From the NCBI GenBank assembly GCA_903938575.1, contig CAJADV010000048.1, forward strand, positions 1 to 51,874: a stretch of 51,874 nucleotides of DNA. The letters are read 5' to 3'. The position numbers and the translations under genes are program-made. The notes beneath the pieces are model-generated. The model ran no database searches and was not told where the DNA came from. It was given only the letters and a program-made list of their open reading frames with translations. Below, piece by piece: positions 1 through 14,624 of this stretch (its first letter is position 1; every line of letters begins with the position of its first letter). The stretch is from an uncultured Gammaproteobacteria bacterium. GTDB taxonomy: Bacteria > Pseudomonadota > Gammaproteobacteria > Pseudomonadales > UBA5518.

Positions 1-2
1 CC

Positions 3-1088
3 GCCTATCGCGAATCGCGTTTCGCGGCAGCGACGGCGCTCTACCGCGATGGCGAAGCGCAGCTGAAAGCGCTGCGGGACGGCATTCCGGCGCGGCTCGA
101 GGCGCGCCTCGCGGCAGCTGATGCGGCCTTCGCGGCGGGAGATCAGGCGGCAGCACTTGCCGCCTTCGCTGAGGCCGCTGCCATCGAGCCCGCCAACGAG
201 CGCGCCCGCAACGGACTGGAGCGGGCAGCCCGCCTCGATCATCTGAAATCCCTGCTGGGTACCGGAGCGGCGCAGGAATCCAGTGGGCAATTCGGGCCGG
301 CGGCTGCGAGCTATCGCGAGGCGCTGGCGCTGGACGGCGCCTGGGAGCCGGCGCGCGCGGCGCTCGCTGCGGTGGAGGCAAAAATCAACGCCGAGCGCAG
401 CGCGGCGCGCGTGTCTGCTGGCTACAGCGCACTCGCGGCAGGACGCCTTGAGGAGGCCAGAGGCGAATTCCGGTCTGCGCTCGCGCTGGGCGCCGGCACC
501 GAAGCGCGCGAGGGGCTGCAGCAGGCAGAGTTCCAGCTCGGGCAGCAAGGCATCGGCGCCCTGCTGCAGGCCGCTACCGAGGCGCAGGGTGCAGAGGATT
601 GGAAGCGGGCACTCCAGAGCTACGAGGCCGCGCTCGCCATCGACGCATCCCTTGGCCCGGCGCGCTCGGGCCGGGAACTCGCGCGCACGCGGCTCGCCCT
701 CGACGAGGCCCTCACCCGGCTGGCCGCACAGCCCGCGAAACTCGCCAGCGACAACGCACGCAGCGCCGCCGACAGGCTGATCGCCGCGGCGGCATCCATT
801 CCCGATCCCGGTCCACGCCTGTCGGCCCAGATAGCAAAGGCCCGCAGCGCGCTTGTCTCGATGCGCACCGAAATCCCGGTGCAGATCCGCTCCGATGGCA
901 AGACCGACGTCATCGTGTTCCGCGTCGGCAGTCTGGGGAGCTTCGCTGAAAAGCAACTCTCGCTGCTGCCCGGCGACTATGTGGCGGTGGGACGGCGCGA
1001 TGGCTACCGCGACGTGCGGGTGGAGTTCGCGCTGCGACCCGGCGCGCCGCCGCCCCCGGTGATCGTGCAATGCGGGCAGCAAATCTGA
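3..1088 (+). CDS. TPR-like repeat protein with C-terminal PEGA-like domain (5' end outside window)
   Basis: Frame 3 is open from the window edge (AYRESRFAAATALYRDGEAQLKAL...) to TGA 1086-1088. It has repeated Ala-rich helical-hairpin motifs of TPR type (e.g. AAFAEAAAIEPANERARNGLERAA, ASYREALALDGAWEPARAAL, QSYEAALAIDASLGPA). The C-terminal LPGDYVAVGRRDGYRDVRVEF resembles the PEGA repeats of the next gene. The stop overlaps the next start. Confidence 0.6.
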   Translation, partial: AYRESRFAAATALYRDGEAQLKALRDGIPARLEARLAAADAAFAAGDQAAALAAFAEAAAIEPANERARNGLERAARLDHLKSLLGTGAAQESSGQFGPAAASYREALALDGAWEPARAALAAVEAKINAERSAARVSAGYSALAAGRLEEARGEFRSALALGAGTEAREGLQQAEFQLGQQGIGALLQAATEAQGAEDWKRALQSYEAALAIDASLGPARSGRELARTRLALDEALTRLAAQPAKLASDNARSAADRLIAAAASIPDPGPRLSAQIAKARSALVSMRTEIPVQIRSDGKTDVIVFRVGSLGSFAEKQLSLLPGDYVAVGRRDGYRDVRVEFALRPGAPPPPVIVQCGQQI

Positions 1089-3160
1089 TGCGGCAAAGCA
1101 GCCCCCCTGACGATGCCGGCGATCACGAGACCCCGATCGCGCCGTTCAGCTATTCGCCCCCCGAGCCCGGTCTGCGCCCCCCCACGCGCCGCCGTTTCGG
1201 CCGCCGTGAACTCAGGATCGCCCTGCCCTTGCTGGGCGCCGCACTGTTCGCCGCTTTCCTGCTGAGCGCGCAGGCCCTGCGCCTGCAGCCCACACCGGAC
1301 AATGCCCGGGTCGATATCGACGGCGGGTTGCAGCTGGTGCTCGGCGATACCGTCCTGTTGCGTCCGGGACCCTACGTGGCAAGGGCCACGGCCGAGGGTT
1401 ACTACCCGCTGGAACAGGCCTTCACGGTAAAAGACACGGGCAACGACCCCCTCTCGCTCGAGCTGCGCAAACTGCCCGGCAAGCTGCTGCTCGAAACCCG
1501 GCCCGTGGCCGCCACCGCCATGCTTGATGGCGCACCGCTCGGCACGAGCAACGGTCAGCCTCTCGAAATCCCTGCCGGCGCCCACCGGCTGCGCGTCACG
1601 GCCGAGCGCTATCTCCCCGTCGAACAGGACATCCGCATCGAGGGTCTCGGCAAAGAACAGTCACTGGCACTCACTCTGGCGCCGGGCTGGGGTTCTTACC
1701 GCCTCGAAACCCAACCCCCCGGCGCCAGCGTCGAACTCGATGGCGCCAGCATCGGGACCACACCCACGACCCTCGAACTCATGCAGGGCCCCCGACAGTT
1801 GCAGCTGCGGCTCGCGAACCACCGGGACGAGAGCCTCTTCGTCGAGGCCAAGGCCGGCGAATCACGCAGCCTCGAGCCGCTTGTGCTGGTCCGTGCCGAT
1901 GCGCGGCTGCGCCTCAGCAGCACGCCCACGGGCGCCAGCATCACGCTAGATGGGCAGTTCCGCGGGACCGCGCCGCTCGAGATCGCGCTGGAGTCGGGCC
2001 AAGCCCACGAACTGATTGCCTTCAAGGCGGGGCATGAAAGAGCTACACGCCGCTTCACCGCCGTGGCGGGAGAGCAGCAGATGAACCTCGCACTGCGCGC
2101 GCTGACGGGTGATATACGGATCGCTGTTACGCCCGCCGATGCCGGCATCTACGCCGGAGAACGACTGCTCGCCCGCGGCAGCGCGATGCTCACACTGGCC
2201 GCCGGCCCGCAGACGCTCACGCTGCGCCGCGCGGGCCACGCCGACGAAACGCTGCGCGTCACGCCGCGCCCGGGTTATCCGCAGGAGTTCTCCGTCAGGC
2301 TGAAAACGCTGGCAGAAAAGCAGCAAGCCGCCGTGCGCAAGAGCGTGCGCAGCGCCGCCGGGCAGGAGCTCGCACTGATCCAGCCGGGCAGCTTCCGCAT
2401 GGGATCATCGCGACGCGAATCCGGGCGGCGCGCCAACGAGGCCATGCGTGACATCCGCCTGACGCGGGCCTTCTACATCAGCCTCACCGAGGTGAGCAAC
2501 GCAGAGTTCAGGCAGTTCCGCTCCGGGCATTCCTCCGGCAACTTCAAGGGCAAAAGCCTGAACGGCGATACGCAGCCGGCCACCAACCTCTCGTGGACGG
2601 AGGCCGCGCTGTACTGCAACTGGCTGAGCGAACGCGAGGGCCTGAAACCCTTCTATCGCATCGCAGGTAAGGCCGTGGCGGGTTTCGAGCCGGGCTCGAC
2701 GGGCTATCGCTTGCCCACCGAGGCCGAGTGGGGCTGGGCAGCCACCGTGAAACCTGATGGCTCGCTACTCCGCTTCGCCTGGGGTGATGCCATGCCACCG
2801 CCACCCAAGGCGGGCAATTACGCAGACAAGAGCGGCGAGACCATCCTCGGCGAGATCATCACCGGATACGACGACGGCTTCCCCGTCTCGGCGCCCGTGC
2901 GCAGCTTTGCATCCGATCGGCGTGGCCTGTTCGACCTCGGCGGCAATGCGGCAGAATGGGTCCACGACCTCTACGAGGCCGCACCCGGTGACGCCGGCAC
3001 GGCGACCGATCCACTGGGTGCGGACATCGGTGAGTATCACGTCATTCGCGGCGCGAGCTGGCGCAACGGCGGGCTGACGGAGCTGCGGCTGGCATTCCGC
3101 GATTACGGCCTCGATGCGCGCGCCGATGTCGGATTCCGCATAGCGAGGTATCTCAAGTGA
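1070..3160 (+). CDS. membrane-anchored PEGA-repeat protein with C-terminal FGE-sulfatase (SUMF1-like) domain, probably non-catalytic
   Basis: 696-aa ORF. An alternative in-frame ATG at 1088 shares one base with the upstream TGA. One TM segment (ALPLLGAALFAAFLLSAQAL) is followed by about five PEGA-like repeats (e.g. LETQPPGASVELDGASIGTTP, LSSTPTGASITLDGQFRGTAP). The FGE-sulfatase motifs are FRMGS, LTEVSNAEF, GYRLPTEAEWGWAA, GNAAEWV and IRGASWRNG. The Cys pair of true FGE after RG(G/A)S is absent. Confidence 0.85.
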   Translation: MRAANLMRQSSPPDDAGDHETPIAPFSYSPPEPGLRPPTRRRFGRRELRIALPLLGAALFAAFLLSAQALRLQPTPDNARVDIDGGLQLVLGDTVLLRPGPYVARATAEGYYPLEQAFTVKDTGNDPLSLELRKLPGKLLLETRPVAATAMLDGAPLGTSNGQPLEIPAGAHRLRVTAERYLPVEQDIRIEGLGKEQSLALTLAPGWGSYRLETQPPGASVELDGASIGTTPTTLELMQGPRQLQLRLANHRDESLFVEAKAGESRSLEPLVLVRADARLRLSSTPTGASITLDGQFRGTAPLEIALESGQAHELIAFKAGHERATRRFTAVAGEQQMNLALRALTGDIRIAVTPADAGIYAGERLLARGSAMLTLAAGPQTLTLRRAGHADETLRVTPRPGYPQEFSVRLKTLAEKQQAAVRKSVRSAAGQELALIQPGSFRMGSSRRESGRRANEAMRDIRLTRAFYISLTEVSNAEFRQFRSGHSSGNFKGKSLNGDTQPATNLSWTEAALYCNWLSEREGLKPFYRIAGKAVAGFEPGSTGYRLPTEAEWGWAATVKPDGSLLRFAWGDAMPPPPKAGNYADKSGETILGEIITGYDDGFPVSAPVRSFASDRRGLFDLGGNAAEWVHDLYEAAPGDAGTATDPLGADIGEYHVIRGASWRNGGLTELRLAFRDYGLDARADVGFRIARYLK

Positions 3161-3426
3161 ACAGATCTGCGCTGACTGCGATGCTGCTGATGCTCGTTGC
3201 CGCTGCGGGCGCCGTGGAGCCGGCTGCCAACCCCGCAGGCGCCACGCCAACCACGCCGCCCAGCGCCCAGCGCGCGGCACCGGTCGTACCGCAGCAGCCC
3301 GTAGAGACAGCACCCCCGATAAGCGCGGCCGACGAGGCCGCGGCCACGCGCCGGGCCGGCGAGCGCTTCAAACCCTCGGAGAAAATCTCCGAGGATCTCT
3401 CCGTGTCGTTCCCCTCTGACATCTGA
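3157..3426 (+). CDS. small secreted Pro/Ala-rich protein with acidic C-terminus (hypothetical)
   Basis: The GTG start forms a GTGA overlap with the upstream stop, and GAGG lies 8 nt upstream. Signal-peptide-like N-terminus MNRSALTAMLLMLVAAAGA|VEP. Pro/Ala-rich middle region. Acidic tail SEKISEDLSVSFPSDI. No family recognised. Confidence 0.55.
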   Translation: MNRSALTAMLLMLVAAAGAVEPAANPAGATPTTPPSAQRAAPVVPQQPVETAPPISAADEAAATRRAGERFKPSEKISEDLSVSFPSDI

Positions 3427-3477
3427 ACCGGCGGCGGCCACCGTCGCAACTACACCACAAGGTCACGAGCACCGCCG

Positions 3478-4290
3478 ATGAAACGACTTCTGGCCTCCGA
3501 GTTCCTCTTCCAGATATTTGCCCTGCTGTTGTCGTTGATCGTGGTGCACACGGTCTATGTGGCGGTGGTGTGGCCGCGCGCCGAGGCATACCTGAAGGCG
3601 CAGGCCGAGCGCATCGCCTCCGGCGACACCACGGCACAGCCGCAATCGATGTTCGTGATCCTGAAAGACTACGAGCAGGAGTCCGAGGTGATTCTGTTTC
3701 TCTGGTGCATGGCCATCATGGGATTCAAGGGCGTGCAGCTGCGCCACGAGCGCGCGCTGTTCCGCGAACCACTGGTGCAGGTGCCCGCCGGCACCAGCAT
3801 TCTTCCCGAGGATGCGCGCGACTTCCTGCGTCCGATCGAGGCGCTGCCGCCGGAATCCCGCGAATGCCTCCTGCCACGCGCGCTGGTCGCCGGCCTGCAA
3901 CGCTTCGCCATCACGCACGGGATCCAGGACGCCTACGGCGCGATCCGCGAGGCCTGCGTCACCGAGGGCGAGCGCCTTGACTCCGAGCTTTCGATGATCC
4001 GCTACATCGCCTGGGCCATACCGGCAATCGGCTTCATCGGCACCGTGCGCGGCATCGGGATGGCGCTTAGCGAGGCCTACCGTGCGGTGGAGGGCGATAT
4101 TGCGGGCGTGACCGACGCACTGGGCGTGGCCTTCAACTCCACGCTCGTGGCGCTGCTGCTCAGCATCATCCTGATGTTCCTGATCCACCAGCTGCAACTG
4201 CAGCAGGAGCGCCTCACGCTGAGCGCGCAGTCTTTCTGCGAAGGACGCCTGCTGCCGCACCTGAAGGTGGCGCGGGAGCTGCGTTCATGA
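3478..4290 (+). CDS. MotA/TolQ/ExbB-family proton-channel protein
   Basis: 270 aa with N-terminal TM helices. The C-terminal signature IAWAIPAIGFIGTVRGIGMAL...ALGVAFNSTLVALLLSIILMFLI matches the conserved ExbB/TolQ/MotA channel region (PxxGLxGTVxG ... TxxGL). Confidence 0.85.
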   Translation: MKRLLASEFLFQIFALLLSLIVVHTVYVAVVWPRAEAYLKAQAERIASGDTTAQPQSMFVILKDYEQESEVILFLWCMAIMGFKGVQLRHERALFREPLVQVPAGTSILPEDARDFLRPIEALPPESRECLLPRALVAGLQRFAITHGIQDAYGAIREACVTEGERLDSELSMIRYIAWAIPAIGFIGTVRGIGMALSEAYRAVEGDIAGVTDALGVAFNSTLVALLLSIILMFLIHQLQLQQERLTLSAQSFCEGRLLPHLKVARELRS

Positions 4291-5633
4291 GCCTTGCGGT
4301 ACTCGACCTGAACGATGCCTCGCTCACGCTGGGCGACGTCGACGGCATCCGCGCCCGCAGCCCGGGATTCGCGCTGCTCGCAGCCGAAGCGCCGCTGCTG
4401 GGCGAGGCAGCGCGAAGCAAGGCACGCATCGACCCGCGCAGCACCAACAGCCAGTTCTGGCTGCGCCTGGGTACCGAGCCGCTGCATCACGCGCCGGCCC
4501 ATACGCGCCACAACGCGGATCTCGGCTATCGCCACCTGCTGCACGTGCATGAACTGGCAGGACAGCCCGCCGAACTGTTGCTGGCGGTGCCGGGAAGTTT
4601 CTCGCGCGAGCAACTGGCCATGCTGCTCGGGATCGCCGAACGCTGCCCCTTCCGCGCCTGCGGGTTGGTCGACAGCGCCATCGCCGCCGCCAGCACCGAG
4701 TCTCTGTCCGGCGCTGCATTGCACCTCGAGTTGCAACTGCACCAGGCCGTGCTGACACAGATCGACCACGCCGACGGCATGCTCACGCGCGGAGCCGTGC
4801 GCGCGCTGCCGGGCGCCGGACTGGCGGCGCTGCAGGATCGCTGGGCGAGGCGCGCGGCCGAGTCCTTCATCCGGCAGTCGCGCTTCGACCCGCTCCACGC
4901 GGCGGCCACCGAGCAGCAACTCCATGACCGCCTGCCGGGCTGGCTCGAGGCGCTCGCCTCACAGGACAGCGTAGAGGCCGAACTCCAGCAGCAGAGCAAT
5001 CGCTACCGGGCAACGCTGCGCGCGGGCGAGATGCTGGACGCGGTGCAGTCGATCTACGCCGATCTGCTCGAAGCCCTCGCCCGCGAGGGCACGGACGCCA
5101 CGCTGCTGCTCGGTGCCCGCGCCGCGGGGCTGCCGCGTTTTGCCGAGCGTGTGCCCGAGGCAAGAACACTGGCAGACAATGCCGCCATCCGCGGCGCCCT
5201 GCGCCACGCCTCACTGGTTCGCAGCGAGGAGCGCGCGCTGCGCTTCGTCACGCGCTTGCCTGCCGAGCTAGCAGCGGCAAGCCTCCGCGTGCCCACACCT
5301 GTCAAGCCGGCGGCGACGCGCACACGCGCAAGCGCGCCCACGCACCTGGTCTCAGGCAGCAGCGCACTGCGTCTGGACAGCGGCACGCTGTATCTGCTCG
5401 GCAACGACGAGGAGGGCTGGGCGCTTTCGCGAAGTACCTCCGCCGCCAGCCGCTGCCGCCTGGAGCAGGACGGCACCGACTGGTACGCCTGCGCAGCGCC
5501 GGGGGTGTTGCTGCGAATCGACGGACTGCCAGCACCGGGACGCGTGCGGGTGGGCGCGGGTACGCACCTCGGCATCGAGAGCGAGGCACTGGTGTTCGTG
5601 ACCGAGGTCGTGGCCGGCGGCAATGGCGCGTAG
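4287..5633 (+). CDS. Hsp70/actin-fold-like protein with degenerate nucleotide-binding motifs and FHA-like C-terminal region
   Basis: ATGA overlap with the upstream stop. The N-terminus aligns by eye to DnaK. [13 protein letters not shown] aligns with [36 protein letters not shown] aligns with [65 protein letters not shown] aligns with [35 protein letters not shown]. The phosphate-2 motif DLGGGTFD is replaced by ELQLHQAV. The C-terminal ~90 aa (LYLLGNDE...SRCRLEQDG...LRIDGLP...[11 protein letters not shown]) is FHA-like but lacks canonical GR/SxxH. No TM segment. Confidence 0.55.
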   Translation: [448 protein letters not shown]

Positions 5634-6711
5634 ACGCGATTTCACGATCTTCAGCCTGTCCTTCCTGGACGTGATGTCCTGTGGCTTCGGCGCGACCATC
5701 CTGCTCTACCTGATCCTCGATCACCGGCAGGAAATGGACACCCGCCAAAAGAGCAGCGCACTGCGCGGCGAGGTCGCGTTCCTCGAGCGCGAGGTGAAAG
5801 AAGGCACCGTGGACCTGGCGGAACTGCGGAACACGCTGTCGATGGTCGATGACTCCCTCGCCGAGGCGAACGGGCGCTCCCGCCAGATTCTCGCGCAGAT
5901 CGCCGAGCGCCGCGACGAGACCGCCGAGGGAAAGGACGACACCCTCGCCCAGCGCGAGCATGTGAACCGCCTGAAGACCGATCTCAAGCAACTCGAGGAA
6001 AACAACGAACGCCTGCGCGCCGAGGGCGAGAAACAGCGCGGGCAGGATGTACGGCAGTTCCAGGGCGACGGCGACCGCCAGTACCTTACCGGGCTGAAGC
6101 TCGGCGGACGGCGCATCCTGGTGCTGCTAGACCGCTCGGCAAGCATGCTCGACTACAGCCTGGTGAACGTGATCCGCCTGCGCAACATGCCCGCACCGGT
6201 GCAGCTGCGCTCGGCCAAGTGGCAACGCGCGGTCGCCACGGTCGACTGGCTGAGCACCCAGTTGCCCGAGGGCAGCCAATACCAGATCTACAGCTTCAAC
6301 ACGCGCGCCGAACCGGTGGTGGAAGGCAGCGCAGGCAAATGGCTGCAAGTCGCCGACCGCGAGCAGCTGAACGGAGCTATCGCGAGGCTGCAGCAACTGG
6401 TGCCGGCCGAGGGCACGAGTCTCGCGAACGCCTTCGAGGTGGCATCAAAGCTCTCACCTGCACCGGACAACATCTACCTGATCACCGACGGCCTGCCCAC
6501 ACAAGGCGCCACGGGACCCAGCGGCCCCAAGGTGAGCGGACGTGACCGCCAACGCCTGTTCAATCAGGCCCTGGAGAAGCTGCCCAAAGGCATACCCGTG
6601 AACGTCATCCTGGCGCCCATGGAGGGCGATCCGATGGCCGCCTCGGCGCTCTGGCAGCTGGCGATATCGACGCGGGGTGCATTCCTCGCGCCGGCACGGG
6701 ACTGGCCATGA
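5623..6711 (+). CDS. ExbD/TolR-like TM anchor - coiled coil - vWA domain protein (paralog 1)
   Basis: The N-terminus MARRRDFTIFSLSFLDVMSCGFGATILL resembles the ExbD/TolR TM helix (E. coli ExbD INVTPFIDVMLVLLIIF) and keeps the Asp (codon 5668-5670). Residues ~45-140 are heptad-like and charged. The vWA domain has a MIDAS DxSxS motif, LLDRSASM (6130-6144), followed by EGTSL and LITDG. Confidence 0.8.
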   Translation: MARRRDFTIFSLSFLDVMSCGFGATILLYLILDHRQEMDTRQKSSALRGEVAFLEREVKEGTVDLAELRNTLSMVDDSLAEANGRSRQILAQIAERRDETAEGKDDTLAQREHVNRLKTDLKQLEENNERLRAEGEKQRGQDVRQFQGDGDRQYLTGLKLGGRRILVLLDRSASMLDYSLVNVIRLRNMPAPVQLRSAKWQRAVATVDWLSTQLPEGSQYQIYSFNTRAEPVVEGSAGKWLQVADREQLNGAIARLQQLVPAEGTSLANAFEVASKLSPAPDNIYLITDGLPTQGATGPSGPKVSGRDRQRLFNQALEKLPKGIPVNVILAPMEGDPMAASALWQLAISTRGAFLAPARDWP

Positions 6712-7706
6712 GCCGCCGTCGTCGTGCACCGGAGGAGTTCAGCCTCTCCTTCCTGGACGTGATCTGCTGCGGCTTCGGGGCAATCATCCTGCTGCTGATC
6801 ATCACGCGGGTCTCCGCCCCGGTCGTACTCGAGGAGAGCACGCGCGATCTGGAGTCGCGGATCGCGGCTCTGCAGGAGCAGCTGTTCCGGCTCCGCGGCG
6901 AGTCGACGGTACTGAACCGCGACCTGACGGCACGACAAGAGCAGCTCTCCGAGGTGATCGACAAGGTCGCCCGCCTGGAGCGCGAACTCTCGTCGATCAA
7001 AGGCGAGTTCGCCGCCAGCGATGCCGACTCCGAGCTGAACTCACGGCTGGTGGGGCAACTCGAGAAAGCCAGGCAGCGCCTCAGCGACGAGATGAAACGT
7101 CTGCTCGGCGCCCAGGGCGGACGTCGCAACGACGCCATCGGTGGCATACCAGTGGACAGCGAATACGTGATTTTCATCATCGACACCTCGGGGAGCATGT
7201 TCAATTACGCATGGCCGCGCGCGCAGCAGGAGATGATCAACATTCTCGACCTTTACCCGAAGGTGAAAGGGATACAGGTGCTCGATGACGAGGGCGGTTA
7301 TATGTTCTCGAGCTATCGCGGGCAGTGGATTCCCGACACGCCCGCGCGGCGCAAGGCGATCATCCAGCGTTTTGCCAGCTGGAACCCCTACTCCAACAGC
7401 AGCCCGGTCGAAGGCATCGTGTTCGCGATCCGGAGCTTCTACGAGCCCGGACGCAAGATCAGCCTCTACGTGCTGGGCGACGAGTTCACCGGCAACTCGA
7501 TAGCGCAGGTGATCGACGTGGTGGACAAGATCAACCGCGAGGGCCCACAGGGCGAGCGGCTGGTGCGGATCCACGCCGTGGGCTTCCCGACCCAGTTTGG
7601 CAATCCGGCCCAGTACCAGATAACCGGCATCCGCTTTGCCACCCTGATGCGCGATCTGTCGTGGAAAAACAACGGCACCTTCGTGGGCCTGAACGACTAC
7701 CGCTGA
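6708..7706 (+). CDS. ExbD/TolR-like TM anchor - coiled coil - vWA domain protein (paralog 2)
   Basis: ATGA overlap with the upstream stop. The N-terminus EEFSLSFLDVICCGFGAIILLLII is nearly identical in pattern to paralog 1, with the Asp codon at 6756-6758. A coiled-coil-like segment follows. The vWA MIDAS motif is IIDTSGSM (7182-7196). Confidence 0.8.
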   Translation: MSRRRRAPEEFSLSFLDVICCGFGAIILLLIITRVSAPVVLEESTRDLESRIAALQEQLFRLRGESTVLNRDLTARQEQLSEVIDKVARLERELSSIKGEFAASDADSELNSRLVGQLEKARQRLSDEMKRLLGAQGGRRNDAIGGIPVDSEYVIFIIDTSGSMFNYAWPRAQQEMINILDLYPKVKGIQVLDDEGGYMFSSYRGQWIPDTPARRKAIIQRFASWNPYSNSSPVEGIVFAIRSFYEPGRKISLYVLGDEFTGNSIAQVIDVVDKINREGPQGERLVRIHAVGFPTQFGNPAQYQITGIRFATLMRDLSWKNNGTFVGLNDYR

Positions 7707-7775
7707 GCACGGGCTTGGATACCCGGTGGCATTGACCCTATGATCCGCCTGCCCCTTGTCCCCGAGCGCGAACGC

Positions 7776-8396
7776 ATGCGCACACGACTCCTGCTGTTGC
7801 TTGTCTGCGTATTGCTGCCGGCCTGCGGGCCGCAGGTCGTGCAGATGAAAGCACTGAACGAATTTCCCCGCCCGCTGGTCGATCCACTGCCGATACGCGT
7901 GGGTTTGCACATCCCGCCCGAGTTCGCCGCCTACACCTACCACGAAAAGCGCCCGGGACGGGCGGGCCAGGAGTGGACCATCAGCATCGGGCCGCCGCAG
8001 GCACAGGTGTTTCAGGAAATGCTGGGCGCACTGTTCAGCGGCGTCGATGTGCTGGATTCGCCAACGGCGGGCGGCAATGGTCTTGCCGCCGTGATCGTGC
8101 CCGGCGTGGCGGAATTCCAGTTCGCGCTGCCCGCCGACACCAAGGCCAAGGTCTTCGAGATCTGGGTCAAATACGATCTTGGAATCCGCACCGCCAAGGG
8201 CGAGGAGATCGGTCACTGGCAGTTCACCGCCTATGGCAAGACGCCCACCGCGTTCCTGAAATCCGACGAGGAGGCGATCCGCGCGGCCACCATTGTTGCG
8301 CTGCGCGATGCGGGTGCCTCGCTGGTGAGCGGGCTGGAGCGCGACCCCAGGCTGCGCGAGTGGCTGGGCGTGGAGCAGCCCGCCGACAAGCCCTGA
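7776..8396 (+). CDS. putative lipoprotein (hypothetical)
   Basis: The ORF is open from ATG 7740. ATG 7776 gives MRTRLLLLLVCVLLPAC|G, which has a signal peptide and a lipobox-like LPAC. No family recognised. It is the last gene of the + strand operon. Confidence 0.55.
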   Translation: MRTRLLLLLVCVLLPACGPQVVQMKALNEFPRPLVDPLPIRVGLHIPPEFAAYTYHEKRPGRAGQEWTISIGPPQAQVFQEMLGALFSGVDVLDSPTAGGNGLAAVIVPGVAEFQFALPADTKAKVFEIWVKYDLGIRTAKGEEIGHWQFTAYGKTPTAFLKSDEEAIRAATIVALRDAGASLVSGLERDPRLREWLGVEQPADKP

Positions 8397-8397
8397 G

Positions 8398-10083
8398 TCA
8401 GCGACCTGGCGTGGCGGCTCGCCGCAGATCTGCCAGCAGCGCCTCGGGATTGGGGGCTCTTCCCAAAAAATCCCGCAACACCGTATCAGCGCTTCTCTCC
8501 CTGCCGAAGCGCAATAAACGCTCGGAGATCCACGCGTAGTAGCCAGCATCCGGGCCGCTCGCCGACCCTCGCAGCTCGCGAGCGCGGGCGCGCATATCCG
8601 CCGCCAGCACCGCGCCGAGCCCGTAATTGATCATGTAGCCGGGACTGTCCACGAGCTGCCCTCGCCGTGCCCACCATGACAGTCCCGGATGCGGGCGCAC
8701 GTGCAGGTAGCGCGCGGCGATGTCGTTCCAGACGCGGTCAGGATCTGCAGCAGGATCGGCGTAGACGCGCAGCTCGAAAAGACTCCAGGCCACATCCAGC
8801 ACGATGCCGGCATAGCGGCTGCGCAGGTTGTCCGCCGCCGATGCCCGGGCGCCGAGCCAGCGTTGCTGCCAGGGCTGCTCGTAGACCTCCTGGGAAAAAA
8901 TCTCTGCGATCGCCTCGGTGAACGCATTGCTGTCGGGCCAGTCGGCAAAGGCCGGCGACGTCCGGATCGCAGCGATGTGGATGGCGTGCCCGGTCTCGTG
9001 GAGTATCTCGTTCAGGTTGCCGATGCCGCCCGTCGCATAGCCGGCGATGACCCAGGGCTCCCCCGTCGACCAGCTCCCGTCCGCACGCCGCCGTGGTCGG
9101 GCACCGAAATCCGTGAAGGCGACCGCCGTCTTGCCCGGGCGGCGCTCGATGTCGTAGTGGATATTGAGTGCCGCGATATCGGCACCCAGGCTGGCGTGGA
9201 AGGCGTCGTTGATTTCCCGCAGCCGCCCGAGGGGCACACGAGCGCCAAGTTGCCGCTCCACCGGGTTGCCCGCATATTCGTAGTCCCACGGTTCGAGATC
9301 GTCGCCCGCCGTGAGCTCGCTCCACGCCTGCAAAACAGCCACCAGCCAGGGTTCCAGTTGGGCCTCATCCAGACCGAGCGCGCGCAGATTGTCAGCAACA
9401 GGCGAACCGCCCGCGCGCCACTCGGCTGCGACCATCGGCTGCATGCGGCGAAACGGACTTTGCTCGCCGCCGTCCCCGTTGATGGTCCGGAACATCGGCT
9501 GCATTGCCTCGAGCAAGTGCCTGCGCCGCGCCGGATCAGGCGAACGGGCCATATCGGCAAGGAGCGTCAGACGGTCGGTGACGCGGCCGTCAATCGCGAT
9601 GGCGTTGGCTGCCAGGCCGTAGCAGGCGTAAGTCCACGACCGCAACGCCGCGAGCGGGGCATCCCGGGCAGGCGCTTTTTCGCAACCGGATACGGACGCG
9701 CCATCTGCCGACGGCGCCGGCGGGAGATCCATCTCCCCGCGCGCGTAGGAGCTGCTCATGGCCTCTGCAGGAGCGCCTGCGGAAACGGGCAGCAGGGCGG
9801 CAACGGCGCTCTGCAACGCAGGGTAAGCAGTGCGCTCAGGCGTGGCGTCCTCAGCGCGCGCTTCGCGCGTGCGGATGCGATCGCCAAGCTCGCGCAGCTC
9901 GAGGAAACTTGACTCGACGGAAGGATCTCGAGCTGATGAAGACGCCGGATGCGCCTCGGCTGCAGCCAGGGCGGCGTGCGACAGGACCGCTGCGGCAAGG
10001 ACGAAGCTGAGAATCAGCGCCGCGCACGGCGGCCCGGAGGCGAACCCGGGAATCGTACAGCGCGGCTCAGTGGGCCCCGGCAC
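8398..10083 (-). CDS. secreted zinc metallopeptidase (HExxH, gluzincin-like)
   Basis: 561-aa ORF. Hydrophobic signal-like N-terminus (CAALILSFVLAAAVLSHAALAAA). HExxH motif within NEILHETGHAIHIA (HExGHxxH pattern, as in M2/M3-type peptidases). The exact family is not determined. Confidence 0.7.
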   Translation of the reverse strand: MPGPTEPRCTIPGFASGPPCAALILSFVLAAAVLSHAALAAAEAHPASSSARDPSVESSFLELRELGDRIRTREARAEDATPERTAYPALQSAVAALLPVSAGAPAEAMSSSYARGEMDLPPAPSADGASVSGCEKAPARDAPLAALRSWTYACYGLAANAIAIDGRVTDRLTLLADMARSPDPARRRHLLEAMQPMFRTINGDGGEQSPFRRMQPMVAAEWRAGGSPVADNLRALGLDEAQLEPWLVAVLQAWSELTAGDDLEPWDYEYAGNPVERQLGARVPLGRLREINDAFHASLGADIAALNIHYDIERRPGKTAVAFTDFGARPRRRADGSWSTGEPWVIAGYATGGIGNLNEILHETGHAIHIAAIRTSPAFADWPDSNAFTEAIAEIFSQEVYEQPWQQRWLGARASAADNLRSRYAGIVLDVAWSLFELRVYADPAADPDRVWNDIAARYLHVRPHPGLSWWARRGQLVDSPGYMINYGLGAVLAADMRARARELRGSASGPDAGYYAWISERLLRFGRERSADTVLRDFLGRAPNPEALLADLRRAATPGR

Positions 10084-10636
10084 CGGGCTCGACGTTGCGC
10101 ACTACGCGCAAGGCCTCCTCGATATCGGCAGCCTGCATGGGGCCCTGATGGAAGTAGAGCACCCTGCTGGCGGTATCGAGCATGATCACGGCGCTCGATG
10201 CCTCCTCCAGATTCCACAGTGCGCGCCCACGGCCCGTCTCGTCGGCGACGATGGTCGAGAGGCTGTACTTGCGTTTGTTCTTCTCGAGCTCCGACAACAC
10301 CATTCCCCGGGTGCCGAACATCGCGTCGTCGAGATTGACCACCGTGGTGATGTGATAGCGGGAGTAGGGAATGCCGGACTTTTCGAGGCTGTCGGTAAAG
10401 GGCTTGCTCTGCCTGCGCGCCGACATCCGGGCCGCCATGTACTGCACGATGTGGATCCGATCTCCGAGCGGCGCGCTCTGCCAGGGCCGGAAGCCCATCT
10501 TGTCGTCCTGCACCAGGATCTCGCCGAGCTTCTCAACCTGCAGCAGTGGCAGCGGATCGCCCGCCTGCAGTGCATGCAGTGGTGCCGCAGCGAGCAGGCA
10601 GAGCCCGAGCAACAGCCCCCGCACAGACTCAGTCAT
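10067..10636 (-). CDS. YtfJ-family periplasmic protein
   Basis: 189 aa with a signal peptide (LLLGLCLLAAAPLHA). The overall pattern (...IHIVQYMAARMSA...PFTDSLEKSGIPYSRYHITTVVNLDDAMFGT...) is recognised as the YtfJ/HI0045 family. The gene overlaps both neighbours, consistent with an operon. Confidence 0.65.
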   Translation of the reverse strand: MTESVRGLLLGLCLLAAAPLHALQAGDPLPLLQVEKLGEILVQDDKMGFRPWQSAPLGDRIHIVQYMAARMSARRQSKPFTDSLEKSGIPYSRYHITTVVNLDDAMFGTRGMVLSELEKNKRKYSLSTIVADETGRGRALWNLEEASSAVIMLDTASRVLYFHQGPMQAADIEEALRVVRNVEPGAGAH

Positions 10637-12008
10637 GATGGATAGGCTCGAGCCGGAGCGGCAGGTCGTCCATCAACTTCGAGAAGGGGAAATGCATGAT
10701 CGCGGGTGGATCGGCATAGCCAGCCGGCAGGCTGAAGCGGAAATTGCGGAGCATCTCGACCATCACGCACTTGAAGAGCATGTCGGCGAAGTGCAGGCCG
10801 ATGCACTTGTGAGCGCCGCCACCGAAAGGCACCCAAAGGTAGGGATGCTGCTTGTTCTCCTGGCGCTCGGGACCGAAACGGTCCGGATCGAAGCGGTGCG
10901 GCTCTTTCCAGTACTCCGGCATCCGATGACAGAAAATCGGGGAGATGGTGACCATCGTGTCGGCGGGAATACGGTAGCCGCCCAGCTCGGTCTCGCGGAT
11001 AGTGCGGCGCATCAGCTGCGGCACCGGCGGATGCATGCGCAGCATCTCGTGAAAGGTCTGCTCCACCAGCGGCACGTTCTGCCCCATGTCCTCGTAAGTG
11101 AGGCCGTGGCCCAACGCGTCGACCTCGGCACGCAGCCGCTCCTGCCACTCGGGATGCCGTGCAAGGTAATAGCTTGCCATGGTGAGCGCGCTGGTGGTGG
11201 TGTCGTGCGCGGCGAGCAGCAGGAAGATCAGGTGGTCAGCAACGACCTTGTCTGCATAGAGCTCGCCGTCCTCGCTGCGCTCCCGACTGAAGTGGCTCAT
11301 CATGTCCATGCCGTCGTCATTGCGCTTGGCAGGCACCAGACCCTCGAAGTAACGCCCCAGCGCCCGTCGCCCCTCCATGCCGCGCCGGTAACTCAGCCCG
11401 AGCCCCGGCCAGTCCTTGCGGATGATGGCCAGCGTGCCCGCCATCATGTCGAGGAAAGACTTGTTCAGGGTGTCGATGTCACTCTCGAGCCCCACACCCA
11501 CGAACACGCGGGCGCCGATCTCGAGCAGCAGCGACTTGATCTGCGGGTAGAAGTGGAAATCCGCGATCCCGGGCCACTCACGCGTGGTGCGTCCGGCCAG
11601 TTCGTTCACGCTGTGGATGTAGTGCTGCATCGAGCTCGTCTTGAAAGCCGACTGCATGATGCGGCGGTGAAACTTGTGCTCCGCGAAATCGCGCACCAGC
11701 AAACCGCCGTCAAAGAAGTCACCGAGCGGCGCGTCATAGCCCATGCGCGCCGAGTAGAGCTGCTGCTGATCCATGACAAGTTCGCGGTTGAAGTCAGGCC
11801 CCAGGGCCCAGACCATGTTCTGCCCGGTCAGACGCGCACGCGAGACCGCACCGAAGCGGTCATAGTGAGCCTTGAGAACCGCGTAGGGGTCCTTCAGCAA
11901 CGGGATCATGAACCCGAGATAGGGCAAGCCGTAGGCGCCCGGGATATGTCCCAGATCACGGTTGTCCTTGCGCAGGGCGTAATCCTGCTCGATACCAGCC
12001 GCTTTCAT
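10629..12008 (-). CDS. cytochrome P450
   Basis: Heme-thiolate loop FGGGAHKCIGLHFA, ExxR motif (EMLRMHPP) and I-helix AAHDTTTS. The ORF track starts at a TTG codon at 12074. ATG 12008 is preceded by AGGAG 9 nt upstream and is preferred. Confidence 0.9.
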   Translation of the reverse strand: MKAAGIEQDYALRKDNRDLGHIPGAYGLPYLGFMIPLLKDPYAVLKAHYDRFGAVSRARLTGQNMVWALGPDFNRELVMDQQQLYSARMGYDAPLGDFFDGGLLVRDFAEHKFHRRIMQSAFKTSSMQHYIHSVNELAGRTTREWPGIADFHFYPQIKSLLLEIGARVFVGVGLESDIDTLNKSFLDMMAGTLAIIRKDWPGLGLSYRRGMEGRRALGRYFEGLVPAKRNDDGMDMMSHFSRERSEDGELYADKVVADHLIFLLLAAHDTTTSALTMASYYLARHPEWQERLRAEVDALGHGLTYEDMGQNVPLVEQTFHEMLRMHPPVPQLMRRTIRETELGGYRIPADTMVTISPIFCHRMPEYWKEPHRFDPDRFGPERQENKQHPYLWVPFGGGAHKCIGLHFADMLFKCVMVEMLRNFRFSLPAGYADPPAIMHFPFSKLMDDLPLRLEPIHHD

Positions 12009-12083
12009 CAGGTGGGACTCCTGCAGGCCGTAAAAACCGGGCGGCCTTATTGCCCCCTTCGTGCCTGCTGACAATTGAACCAG

Positions 12084-12112
12084 AGACTATGCCATCGATC
12101 CCCGGCTGACAA
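12084..12112 (-). promoter_or_regulatory. candidate sigma70-type promoter for the P450 operon
   Basis: The minus strand reads TTGTCA (12112-12107), a 17-nt spacer, then TAGTCT (12089-84). The -10 match is weak. This is pattern recognition only. Confidence 0.25.
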
Positions 12113-12163
12113 TCGCGGCAGGCTCGCAGCATCAGCACATGGACGGACCGTAAAGCGGAACCG

Positions 12164-12658
12164 CTAGTTCCGGTTTACCGGTTTGCTATACGGGTCCTCG
12201 TGACGACGATCGTCTCCCGAACGGCGATCATCGCTCATGCGCACATCCTCACGACGGTCGATGCGGACACGACGAGGACTGCGCCGACGGCCCACCACCG
12301 TATGCACCTGGCATTGGCATGTTTCGCGATCACAACCGGGCACCGGGATGGACGGGACGCGCCCCTCGGGGAAGGTCTTGCCGCGCAGGAGCACGACGGC
12401 ATCGCAGGGTGAGGGTTGGGGGAACAGCATGCCACCGCGGAACTTGTCGACAAATTCGGCATCTTGCGCAGGCTGTGGAACGGATGGAGCAGTCGAAGCG
12501 GGCGAGGTGCGAGACACCGGGGAATCCCGGCGCGACGAGGTCTGGGCCTTGGGCACTGCAACGGCGCCCCGAGCGGATTTATCGCGCCCCTTGATCAGGA
12601 AAAAGTACAACAGCGCCGCCGTGATCGCGAGGCCTGCCAGCACTATCGCTGCACTCAT
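12164..12658 (-). CDS. hypothetical membrane-anchored protein with Cys cluster and Arg/Asp-rich tail
   Basis: ATG at 12658. N-terminal TM AAIVLAGLAITAALLYFFLI. A Ser/Pro-rich linker is followed by PVPGCDRETCQCQVH and a highly charged tail RRRSPRRVRIDRREDVRMSDDRRSGDDRRHED. The GC3-rich codon pattern is consistent with coding. Confidence 0.5.
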   Translation of the reverse strand: MSAAIVLAGLAITAALLYFFLIKGRDKSARGAVAVPKAQTSSRRDSPVSRTSPASTAPSVPQPAQDAEFVDKFRGGMLFPQPSPCDAVVLLRGKTFPEGRVPSIPVPGCDRETCQCQVHTVVGRRRSPRRVRIDRREDVRMSDDRRSGDDRRHEDPYSKPVNRN

Positions 12659-12727
12659 TGCCGCTCACCCTCGGTTCGGCCGGTACTGGGTTTCACGCGC
12701 GAGGGCGTGACGCAAAAGTATAGGCCA

Positions 12728-13738
12728 TCACCGATCAAGGGGGCGCAGACCCACGGCGGCACGCACGGAACTCATCAGGGGCACGCTGAACTGGCGGGCT
12801 CGCACCGCACCCTCGCGGAGCAGTTGCTCGATTCTCCCCGGGTCTGCGAGGAGCGCTTCGTAGCGCTCGCGTGGACCCATCAACTGCGTGTTGAGCAGTT
12901 CGAAAAGCTGACGCTTGGCTTCACCCCAGCCGATGCCATCGGCAAAGGCCTGACGCATGGCGGCGCTCTGTTGGGGCGTGGCAAACGCCTGCCAGATCTG
13001 GAACACGGCGGACGCGTCGGGATCCTTCGGCTCACCGGGCTCCTGCAGGTTGGTCTTGATGCGATTGATGTGTTTCTGGAGCTGTTTCTCGGGCAAAAAC
13101 AGCGGAATGGTGTTGCCGTAGCTCTTGCTCATCTTGCGGCCGTCAAGGCCTGCCAGCACGGCAGAGTTGTCATCGACCGCCGCGCTGGGCAGCACGAAGT
13201 GCTCGCCGTAGTGATGGTTGAAGCGCTGCGCGATATCGCGCGCCATCTCCACGTGCTGCACCTGGTCACGCCCTACGGGCACGAGGTTGGTGCCGAACAA
13301 CAGGATGTCCGCGGCCATCAGCACCGGGTAGCTGTAAAGGCCCATGGTGATGGCGAAGTCAGGATCCTCGCCAGATTCCTGGTTGGACTGCACCGCGGCC
13401 TTGTAGGCGTGGGCCCGATTCATCAGACCCTTGGCCGTGTTGCAGGTGAGTATCCAGGTGAGCTCGGGAATCTCGGGGATATCGGACTGGCGGTAGAAAA
13501 TCACCCGATCCGGATCCAGTCCGCAGGCGAGCCAGGTGGCTGCAATTTCGCGGGTGGCGCGGTGCACGACCTCCGGGTCCTGGCACTTGATCAGCGCGTG
13601 GAAATCCGCAAGAAAGAAAAACGACTGCACGTCCTGGCGCCGACTCGCCTCGATGGCAGGACGGAACATGCCCACGTAATTGCCGAGGTGCGGAGTGCCA
13701 CTCGGCGTGATGCCGGTGAGAACGCGCTGGTATTTCAT
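12728..13738 (-). CDS. trpS: tryptophan--tRNA ligase
   Basis: Class I aaRS motifs [11 protein letters not shown] (HIGH-type) and KMSKS. ATG at 13738 gives about 336 aa. The longer ORF reaching 14053 overlaps the divergent gene and lacks homology. Confidence 0.93.
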
Positions 13739-13832
13739 GGATTTGGCGACCCGGTGTACAAGCGCCGTATGATACGGACCCGCCGGGACGTGGGCCAGCC
13801 GCCTCCCGCGATCACCCAGCCCGGAGAACACC

Positions 13833-14624
13833 ATGAACAGTTTCAGCACCCTCGAATTCGTCCGCGACGGCGCCCTGGCGCGAATCACCCTGAACCGGCC
13901 CGATGCCGCCAACGGCCTCAGCATGGAGATGGCCAAGGAACTGCTCGAAGTCTCCATCGCCTGTCGTGCCGATGCCGGTGTACGCGCCGTGATCCTGAGC
14001 GGTCGGGGACGCTTCTTCTGCGCCGGCGGAGACCTGAAGGGCTTCGTCGACAACGCCGACGCGCTCTATCCCTTCGTCAAGGAGCTCACCACCCACCTGC
14101 ATTGCGCCATCAGCAATTTCGCGCGCATGCGCGCACCGCTGATAGTGGCCGTAAACGGTGCAGCAGCCGGCGCGGGCTTCAGCCTGGCGGCGGCGGGCGA
14201 TCTGGTGATCGCGGCACGCTCGGCCAAGTTCTCGATGGCCTACACCGGCGCGGGACTGGTGCCCGATGGCAGCAGCAGCTGGTACCTGCCCCGCATCGTC
14301 GGGATCCGCCGTACGCAAGAACTGATGCTCACCAACCGTCGCCTGAGCGCCGAGGAAGCCCTCGACTGGGGCATCCTCACCCGCGTGGTGGATGACACCG
14401 AGCTGGCGGCAGAAACCGAGAAGCTCGCGCAACAAATGGCCTCGGGGCCCACGGTCGCTTACGGCGCCGTGAAAAAACTGCTGGCGCTCAGTTTCGAGTC
14501 TTCGCTGGAGGCGCAACTCGAGCACGAGTCACAGGCCATCTCGGAGGCGGCCATCACGGCCGACGGTCGCGAGGGTGTCGCGGCATTCTTTGCCAAGCGC
14601 ACGCCAGACTACCGCGGCGCTTGA
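13833..14624 (+). CDS. enoyl-CoA hydratase/isomerase (crotonase) family protein
   Basis: [12 protein letters not shown]...[17 protein letters not shown] is the typical crotonase oxyanion-hole region. GGAG-like RBS before ATG 13833. Confidence 0.88.

Follow-up and report, generated by a model that had tools for sequence, protein, structure and literature searches.

We examined a locus on contig CAJADV010000048.1 (assembly GCA_903938575.1) of an uncultured gammaproteobacterium placed in the Pseudomonadales, which encodes a MotA/ExbB/TolQ-family channel together with two membrane-anchored proteins that end in vWA domains. The window analysed is the whole 51,874 nt stretch, and the interval studied is 3478–7706. 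Four genes lie in this interval, all on the plus strand: the channel gene (3478–4290, 270 aa), a gene for a protein predicted to combine a fold like the Hsp70 nucleotide-binding domain (NBD) with an FHA domain (4287–5633, 448 aa), and the genes for the two vWA proteins, here named vWA1 (5623–6711, 362 aa) and vWA2 (6708–7706, 332 aa). They belong to a densely packed operon in which start and stop codons share 4 nt (ATGA, ATGA and GTGA), and translational coupling is therefore indicated. An earlier note on this DNA had described a stator-like trio made up of the channel and the two vWA proteins; these three genes hold up, but the 448 aa gene that separates the channel gene from the vWA genes was left out, as was the rest of the operon.

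The locus was compared with 80 genome loci, each taken with ±8 kb of flanking sequence (one of them, L001, is 98% identical), and with four more distant loci, L081–L084. In 80/80 loci a vWA1-type gene is followed by one of the vWA2 type, and the channel gene is present in every locus whose contig extends far enough. The gene order is fixed across these 80 genomes, which come from several families, and extends to Verrucomicrobiota.

The channel subunit

The 270 aa protein matched Pfam MotA_ExbB (PF01618) with an E-value of 2.1e-13 and a score of 50.6 bits, against a cut-off of 22.9 bits. NCBIfam matches to TolQ and ExbB were weak, and the protein fell under the equivalog cut-offs for TolQ, ExbB and PomA. 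Judged by these profiles, it is a member of the MotA/TolQ/ExbB family and not a named TolQ, ExbB or PomA ortholog. In a phmmer alignment P182 (codon 4021–4023), T189 (4042–4044) and T222 (4141–4143) fall on P151, T158 and T186 of PomA. These are the Pro of the penultimate transmembrane helix and one Thr in each of the last two, and in motors of this class they belong to the pore and the ion pathway. Among 72 orthologs, T189 and T222 are each kept in 98% or more. The protein is the putative subunit of a pentameric stator ring.

No canonical partner gene accompanies the channel gene. A tblastn search of the window and of the 80 loci with their flanks detected no ExbD/TolR gene, and the called genes of L081, L082 and L084 gave no Pfam match to ExbD, MotB_plug or OmpA. 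Apart from the helices of the two vWA proteins, no transmembrane segment of the operon's proteins contains an Asp.

Two paralogous vWA proteins

Both vWA proteins begin with an Arg-rich segment, which is followed by FSLSFLDV(M/I)xCGFGAxILL. In vWA1 the transmembrane helix is encoded at 5650–5718 and includes Asp16 (codon GAC, 5668–5670); in vWA2 it is encoded at 6738–6806 and includes Asp17 (codon GAC, 6756–6758). The coiled-coil stalk of vWA1 occupies 5719–6042. The metal ion-dependent adhesion site (MIDAS) of vWA1 comprises DRSAS (D170xS172xS174, 6130–6144), T265 (6415–6417) and D289 (6487–6489), and the corresponding DxSxS motif in vWA2 is DTSGS (7182–7196). The vWA2 gene starts within the stop of the vWA1 gene (ATGA).

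The vWA1 protein matched Pfam VWA_2 with an E-value of 6e-9. An AlphaFold2 model of it, built with 120 homologs, has an unbroken helix at residues 12–100, a second helix at 108–140, a low-confidence linker and a vWA domain at 160–360, where the block values of the predicted local distance difference test (pLDDT) are mostly around 90. Foldseek matched this domain to TEM8, BatB, CLCA1, LapA and other vWA domains with E-values from 4e-7 to 1e-5. Among 102 full-length vWA1-type representatives, the MIDAS residues are retained in 95 (D170), 101 (S172), 95 (S174), 84 (T265) and 99 (D289).

Taken alone, vWA2 gave only a weak VWA_2 match (E 0.09). When the vWA1 and vWA2 families were aligned to each other with hhalign, the match reached 99.3% probability (E 3e-20) and ran from the helix through the stalk to the middle of the vWA domain, and the two proteins of the window share 27% identity by BLASTP (E 1e-12). 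On these alignments vWA1 and vWA2 are paralogs. The vWA fold of vWA2 is assigned from its homology to vWA1, which covers the first half of the domain, together with weak matches of its profile to integrin I-domains at the MIDAS strand, and should be read as a prediction. Across 30 vWA2-type sequences, some of them from distant loci, D17, D159, S161 and S163 do not vary; the equivalents of the MIDAS Thr and Asp were placed by eye only, in SSPVEG and GDEF.

Between 35 and 45% of the stalk residues are charged. A hydrophobic periodicity of 3.5 residues was found in residues 36–100 (p<0.001) and 108–140 (p=0.02) of vWA1 and in residues 36–135 of vWA2 (p=0.05).

The pair is retained well beyond the close relatives. 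The same order, vWA1-type before vWA2-type, is kept in L081, from a member of the Puniceicoccaceae (Verrucomicrobiota), and in L082, L083 and L084, and in these four loci a vWA1 query matches the first gene best while a vWA2 query matches the second. As both types are kept in distant lineages, the duplication is old and the copies are non-redundant; a pair so retained is probably heterodimeric. The family is large: the candidates that were scored fall into 5734 clusters at 90% identity, and at 50% identity 1447 representatives have E≤0.001, 320 of them E≤1e-30. Many marine and freshwater Gammaproteobacteria carry it, and its range extends to Verrucomicrobiota, the cluster names of 20 representatives including Pseudomonadales, Porticoccaceae, Halieaceae, a betaproteobacterial metagenome-assembled genome (MAG) and Puniceicoccaceae. 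Halioglobus, Parahaliea, Maricurvus and Simiduia (loci L025, L032, L072 and L080) are among its culturable carriers.

A conserved transmembrane helix containing Asp

The consensus of the helix is FSLSFLD(V/I/C)MSCGFGAV, and it contains neither His nor the sequence SHLS. The Asp was counted in representatives at 50% identity that have a G[FL]G[AS] core within the first 60 residues. It lies five residues before this core in 111/112 of them, and the lone exception has a garbled N-terminus. The Asp sits approximately six residues into the hydrophobic segment, and ExbD, TolR and MotB have an essential Asp at a similar position in their helices.

The helix is the best conserved part of these proteins. 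Averaged over positions, the commonest residue accounts for a fraction of 0.75 in the helix, 0.54 in the vWA domain and 0.31 in the stalk, and 17/23 helix positions are identical between the two paralogs of the window, which are otherwise approximately 25% identical. A passive membrane anchor is, as a rule, where a protein varies most, and this helix does not behave like one.

The charges that flank the helix differ between its two sides. The net charge of the N-terminal flank is +2.8, compared with -1.2 for the 15 residues after the helix, in vWA1-type proteins, and +1.65 compared with -0.34 in vWA2-type proteins. On average, Lys and Arg together number 3.4–3.5 in the approximately 10 residues of the N-terminal flank and 1.3–1.6 over the 15 residues that follow the helix; 83–95% of sequences are richer in them on the N-terminal side. 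The positive-inside rule therefore predicts an N-in/C-out orientation, which would put the vWA heads in the periplasm; ExbD, TolR and MotB have the same topology.

Much of what the earlier note had read from the letters of this stretch was borne out by these results. The positions it gave for both Asp codons and both DxSxS motifs are correct, the Arg-rich N-terminus and the helix motif are indeed shared by both proteins, and the channel it called ExbB-like is a MotA_ExbB protein. The stalk it described as heptad-like has the periodicity of one and, in the vWA1 model, the helices, the Asp is conserved among orthologs, the heads are predicted to lie in the periplasm and not in the cytoplasm, and the non-redundancy that it suggested for the paralogs agrees with their joint retention. 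Its claim of a vWA domain with an intact MIDAS stands for vWA1, in fold and in all five residues, and for the DxSxS motif of vWA2; the Thr and Asp of vWA2 are the less certain part of it.

The Hsp70-like/FHA protein

The 448 aa product of the gene at 4287–5633 was modelled by AlphaFold2 with a mean pLDDT of 94.8 and a predicted template modelling score (pTM) of 0.90. Foldseek matched the model to the NBDs of Ssz1, BiP, DnaK and Hsc70 (E 1e-16 to 1e-14), with a target-normalised TM-score of up to 0.71 over approximately 375 columns. By its model, the N-terminal fold is that of an Hsp70 NBD, an actin-like ATPase. Several homologs, as well as the L084 equivalent, are annotated with PF00498 (FHA); the FHA region makes up the C-terminal ~100 residues, from about residue 350, and the ortholog profile has weak matches to the FHA domains of EssC and Ki-67.

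Profile searches with the protein itself returned no Pfam or NCBIfam match, Pfam HSP70 included, and its PDB profile matches to Hsp70 were weak (E 0.6–1). In the consensus, the phosphate loops, located by eye, have L(E/D)LND and LQLHQ where canonical loops have DLGTT and DLGGGT, and from these sequences the protein may be a pseudo-ATPase. Membership of the Hsp70 chaperones was rejected, on the grounds that an FHA domain replaces the substrate-binding domain, that Pfam HSP70 is not matched and that the loops are non-canonical. The protein is predicted to be cytoplasmic because it has no transmembrane segment. Its gene starts within the end of the channel gene (ATGA) and is coupled on both sides. 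The verrucomicrobial locus has a gene for a 499 aa protein in the same position and of similar size, the product of which has no detectable homology to the Hsp70-like/FHA protein.

In L084, which shares 37% identity, two Ser/Thr kinase genes flank the cluster (L084:1–2410 and L084:11023–14964), and one of the kinases also carries Laminin_G, FGE-sulfatase and lectin domains. Ser/Thr kinases fit the presence of an FHA domain, and their position beside this cluster suggests phospho-regulation through the FHA protein.

The surrounding operon

Upstream of the interval studied, positions 3–1088 (plus strand) encode the C-terminal part of a transmembrane-anchored TPR-like protein, cut at its 5' end by the start of the window, to which the frame is open. 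The full protein is found in L001 (L001:1934–3463), where it is 509 aa long, has an N-terminal transmembrane segment and gives weak TPR_2 and TPR_11 matches. The 238 aa open reading frame (ORF) at 372–1088 is thus only the C-terminal piece of this protein, the C-terminal region of which appears by eye to be beta-rich. The gene is syntenic in 67/80 loci, and in L084 the C-terminal domain of its product is fused to a Ser/Thr kinase.

The next gene, at 1070–3160 (plus strand), overlaps the TPR gene by 19 nt and encodes a 696 aa envelope protein. Pfam matched it to PEGA in four stretches (E 2.7e-35) and to FGE-sulfatase in the C-terminal part (E 1.4e-35), and Kyte–Doolittle hydropathy places a transmembrane segment at residues 47–72. 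This gene is syntenic wherever the contig reaches, and it is also present in the distant loci L081, L082 and L084. It is followed at 3157–3426 (plus strand) by an ORF for an 89 aa Pro/Ala-rich protein with a probable signal peptide (hydrophobic residues 4–24), the GTGA start of which overlaps the upstream stop. Matches to it were detected by tblastn in 14/80 loci, mostly over approximately 20 residues at 81–93% identity, and L081 and L082 have a small ORF in the same position. The conserved stretch of about 20 residues in this predicted secreted protein is possibly a short binding motif.

Downstream of the vWA genes, the ORF at 7740–8396 (plus strand) encodes a probable lipoprotein of 218 aa, with an N-terminal hydrophobic segment (residues 15–36) that ends in LLPAC, for which no Pfam or NCBIfam family was matched. 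With its gene, syntenic in 77/80 loci, the conserved cluster ends. Genes of similar size occupy this position in L081 and L084; that of L081 encodes 229 aa, with no detectable homology to the product of 7740–8396. Beyond it, on the minus strand, are genes for a weakly matched M3-like metallopeptidase (8398–10083; E 2e-5, just below the Pfam cut-off) and a cytochrome P450 (10629–12074; E 2e-64). Neither is conserved beside the cluster in other genomes, and the 3' boundary of the cluster is therefore placed after 8396. Immediately downstream of the cluster in L081 there is a gene of the CsgG family, which is curli-secretion-channel-like (L081:10982–11944, minus strand), with a type II secretion system ATPase gene (T2SS-E/MshE) nearby.

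At the other end, L001 has genes for a 225 aa acidic protein (L001:49–726) and a 391 aa lipoprotein (L001:726–1901) upstream of the TPR gene. Both are conserved in 64/80 loci and in L082, and the lipoprotein matched no Pfam family. The conserved cluster thus amounts to about ten genes and reaches past the start of the window.

The L001 record (CAMAXE010000004.1) is titled 'MAG: Klebsiella pneumoniae', and that of L010 'uncultured Klebsiella sp.'. The window has a G+C content of 63–70%, and the remaining relatives all belong to Pseudomonadales, Cellvibrionales or Halieaceae. The L001 bin looks taxonomically mislabelled.

A predicted motor with a vWA-bearing axle

An arrangement of this kind has been predicted before. 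In section 8 and Fig. 4c–d of their paper, Williams-Jones et al. (2025, Mol Biol Evol 42:msaf138, PMC12204202) describe a 'TPH-vWA' and TolQ-like kind, in which the TPH-vWA genes occur 'predominantly in heterologous pairs' tightly linked to a tolQ/motA-like gene, with no tolR, exbD or motB nearby. As set out there, the TPH-vWA helix has a conserved Asp and lacks SHLS, the channel has conserved pore Thr residues, and AlphaFold 3 (AF3) models of the Idiomarina loihiensis proteins place the pair of Asp residues within a ring of Thr residues in a TolQ-like pentamer. The kind is distributed in Proteobacteria and Verrucomicrobia, and it is presented in that section as a computational prediction, without experiments. 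Judged by shared features, the locus studied here belongs to this kind; every defining feature in the published section was found again. The output that the earlier note had called previously undescribed was therefore already in print, as architecture and as hypothesis, in June 2025.

What is new here is the conserved operon context. The Hsp70-NBD-like/FHA, PEGA/FGE-sulfatase and lipoprotein genes conserved around the pair are not mentioned in section 8 or the Fig. 4 legend of PMC12204202; a search of the paper for 'Hsp70' gave 0 occurrences, and a TPR gene is named there only for a TolA/TonB-like vWA family. Our literature searches found no other paper that describes a vWA-axle system. For the extended cluster (PEGA, FHA, Hsp70, MotA and vWA) they returned only conflict-system papers from the Aravind laboratory, and TolQ and ExbB are absent from the conflict-system survey PMC7159879.

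We consider it probable, with some reserve, that the locus encodes an ion-driven, stator-type (5:2-like) motor of the inner membrane, the axle of which is the vWA1/vWA2 pair. The two proteins would replace ExbD, TolR or MotB as the central axle, each N-in helix (with D16 or D17) entering the channel ring beside the pore residues Thr189 and Thr222. The coiled-coil stalks, of about 100 residues, would end in periplasmic vWA heads with a MIDAS metal site. Ion flow, probably of protons, along the path of Asp and Thr would turn or pull the stalk and so apply force to ligands bound by the heads, for which the co-encoded PEGA/FGE-sulfatase protein, the transmembrane TPR protein and the lipoproteins are candidates. 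The Hsp70-NBD-like/FHA protein would be a likely regulator or cytoplasmic partner, probably responsive to Ser/Thr phosphorylation. In favour of this proposal are the family and pore residues of the channel, the nearly invariant Asp and strong conservation of the helix, the charge bias on its two sides, the lack of a canonical partner gene nearby, the tight and syntenic operon, the retention of both vWA types in distant loci, the predicted helical stalk and vWA fold with their conserved MIDAS residues, the placing of Asp on the ExbD/TolR Asp in the best hhalign alignment, and the independently published AF3 model.

Several points weigh against this proposal. The likeness of the helix to that of ExbD and TolR, which the earlier note had drawn by eye, is not significant in profile comparisons, formally an outcome that the note itself had listed as refuting its reading. 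The first 50 residues of both vWA proteins had no ExbD or MotB_plug match in Pfam at E≤10. With hhalign, the N-terminal family alignment was compared with 122 TolR/ExbD sequences, 120 of which were retrieved with a consensus query, in the combinations N-terminus with N-terminus, N-terminus with full length and full length with full length. This yielded a single match of 8 columns with a best probability of 1.5% (0.3–1.5%; P=0.033), in which LSFLDVMS lies on TPFIDVML, Asp on Asp. The helix is nearly invariant in the TolR set obtained with the consensus query, which is effectively one observation. When a hidden Markov model (HMM) of the helix was scored against 2467 decoy transmembrane segments from the same genomes, E. 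coli ExbD fell within the top 6%, and the median of the TolR set and PomB fell at the 39% level, while MotB was not reported as a match at all; E. coli ExbD, TolR and MotB and Vibrio PomB were scored alongside the TolR set, and none of these helices stood out from the decoys. Membership of the ExbD/TolR family (PF02472) was rejected for both proteins, as there is no significant similarity and their C-terminal part is a coiled coil and a vWA domain.

Sequence comparison gives no proof that the helix is homologous to that of ExbD/TolR, and at a length of about 20 residues such proof may be unattainable. The vWA proteins may nevertheless work like ExbD without being members of its family, an analogy of function that is drawn because of the context and not because of sequence similarity. 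The interpretation in the earlier note is thus partly supported, being right in outline and weak on sequence homology. Idiomarina is absent from the cluster names of the 20 family representatives, and kinship to the I. loihiensis seed is judged from shared features. In addition, the two paralogs might make two kinds of homodimeric motor, the small residues of CGFGA could simply be a motif for dimerisation of helices, and the Hsp70-like/FHA protein and the kinases beside the L084 cluster hint at signalling free of rotation.

There are three rival explanations. The vWA proteins may be ordinary anchored scaffolds or adhesins of the periplasm, similar to BatA and BatB, with an Asp that serves packing within the membrane. 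Their helices would then dimerise, or bind the exterior of the channel or other transmembrane proteins of the operon, and the MotA-like protein would be a plain channel or have an unlinked partner. The insignificant similarity to ExbD/TolR favours such proteins, as do the small-residue motif CGFGA, which is typical of helix-helix packing, and the presence of BatB, itself transmembrane-anchored, among the best Foldseek matches of the vWA1 domain. However, the helix is the most conserved part of the protein, whereas passive anchors are normally the least, its Asp is invariant across phyla, and the channel gene always co-occurs, with no canonical partner nearby. The helix also lacks the His and the SHLS-type motif by which, according to PMC12204202, TonB/TolA-type proteins bind peripherally, and the AF3 model published there puts such helices in the pore. 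We regard the scaffold explanation as unlikely.

A phospho-signalling or conflict (defence-like) module was also considered, in which the channel would be a depolarising effector gated by the vWA proteins, loosely as in Zorya. The FGE-sulfatase and PEGA domains would sense an envelope ligand, and Ser/Thr kinases and the FHA protein would relay the signal. In keeping with this, the central 448 aa protein has an FHA domain, the L084 cluster is flanked by two Ser/Thr kinases, one of them with an FGE-sulfatase domain, and the channel has a weak PADLOC match to ZorA (E 4.5e-5); FGE-sulfatase ('FGS'), PEGA, vWA and FHA recur in conflict systems (PMC7159879). Yet the ZorA match is limited to the generic MotA/ExbB core, the other PADLOC matches (to LmuB and PbeC) being coiled-coil noise, and there is no effector enzyme, MoxR or STAND NTPase. 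Neither positions 1–14000 of the window nor the 8 kb upstream in L001 contain a kinase gene, and we judge a gene order fixed over 80 genomes and in Verrucomicrobiota to be unlike that of a patchy defence island. Such a module seems distinctly improbable.

Partnerships of FHA and vWA proteins are known, among them archaeal ArnA (FHA) with ArnB (vWA) and the TerY-P triads of vWA protein, kinase and phosphatase. The topology could accordingly be the reverse of that predicted, with cytoplasmic vWA domains that pair with the FHA protein and Arg-rich N-termini in the periplasm. The FHA gene is directly upstream of the vWA1 gene and translationally coupled to it, and the ArnAB complex (8s05) appears at rank 49 of the Foldseek matches of vWA1. 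The positive-inside charge bias points the other way, however, and, the FHA protein and the channel aside, every other operon protein has a hydrophobic segment at its N-terminus (transmembrane, signal or lipoprotein-like), which suggests an envelope location. A reversed topology is therefore very improbable.

The stator-type motor remains the explanation that we prefer, and it can be extended to the whole cluster, though this step is speculative and its truth doubtful. The roughly ten genes would encode a trans-envelope machine built around a motor with a heterodimeric axle and put under phospho-control through the degenerate Hsp70-NBD/FHA protein, with MIDAS heads that pull on PEGA/FGE-sulfatase, transmembrane TPR or lipoprotein partners. 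If true, such a machine might tether the outer membrane, drive surface adhesion or gliding or remodel the envelope, and it would be distinct from the Ton, Tol, flagellar, Glt, type IX secretion (T9SS) and Zorya systems. The conserved neighbours, namely the Hsp70-like/FHA protein, the PEGA/FGE-sulfatase protein, the transmembrane TPR protein, the lipoproteins and, in some lineages, kinases, provide handles on function.

Relationship to known systems

The locus also resembles the ion-driven 5:2 motors ExbB–ExbD, TolQ–TolR, MotA–MotB and PomA–PomB. Shared with these are a MotA_ExbB channel that has the pore Pro and Thr residues, a single-pass partner (here by prediction) that is N-in with an Asp near the cytoplasmic end of its helix, and adjacent, translationally coupled genes. 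The helix itself is without significant similarity to ExbD/TolR, and beyond it the candidate axle continues into a coiled coil and a vWA domain with a MIDAS, not the ExbD/TolR or OmpA-like peptidoglycan-binding domain. The known motors have one homodimeric partner, whereas two diverged paralogs are found here, and an Hsp70-like/FHA gene stands between the channel and partner genes. If the proposed motor is real, the MotA/ExbB/TolQ class gains an axle whose coiled-coil stalk itself bears a metal-dependent adhesion (vWA) head. It would also gain a natural asymmetric 5:1:1 motor with two non-identical chains, which would be a fifth or sixth functional branch of the class.

The TolA/TonB-like vWA 'force transducers' in Fig. 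4a–b of PMC12204202 resemble vWA1 and vWA2 in having a C-terminal vWA domain tethered to the inner membrane, an adjacent motor gene and a TPR gene nearby. As depicted there, they bind the outside of a TolQR-like motor through SHLS/His, and tolR-like genes are present; both of these are missing here. Their linker is Pro-rich or disordered, in contrast to the coiled coil of the proteins described here.

Zorya ZorA–ZorB, an anti-phage stator, has a MotA/ExbB-like core in common with the locus. However, the 270 aa channel is without the long tail of ZorA, and the cluster looks like a conserved operon of the chromosome. Membership of Zorya was rejected, since the PADLOC match to ZorA covers positions 34–118 of 505 and there is no ZorB-type peptidoglycan-binding partner and no ZorC, ZorD or ZorE.

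In GldL/GldM–GldK (PorL/PorM–PorK) of gliding and T9SS and in Agl–Glt, a stator-type motor is likewise encoded with envelope proteins. The PEGA/FGE-sulfatase protein was tried as a GldK/PorK protein and rejected, as its NCBIfam match (E 6e-24) scored 85 bits against a cut-off of 350; no GldL, GldM, GldN or Glt homologs were seen. In Agl–Glt of Myxococcus, a vWA domain, that of the adhesin CglB, is reportedly the output end of a motor-driven system. CglB is an outer-membrane lipoprotein, whereas at the locus described here the vWA domain is fused to the candidate axle itself.

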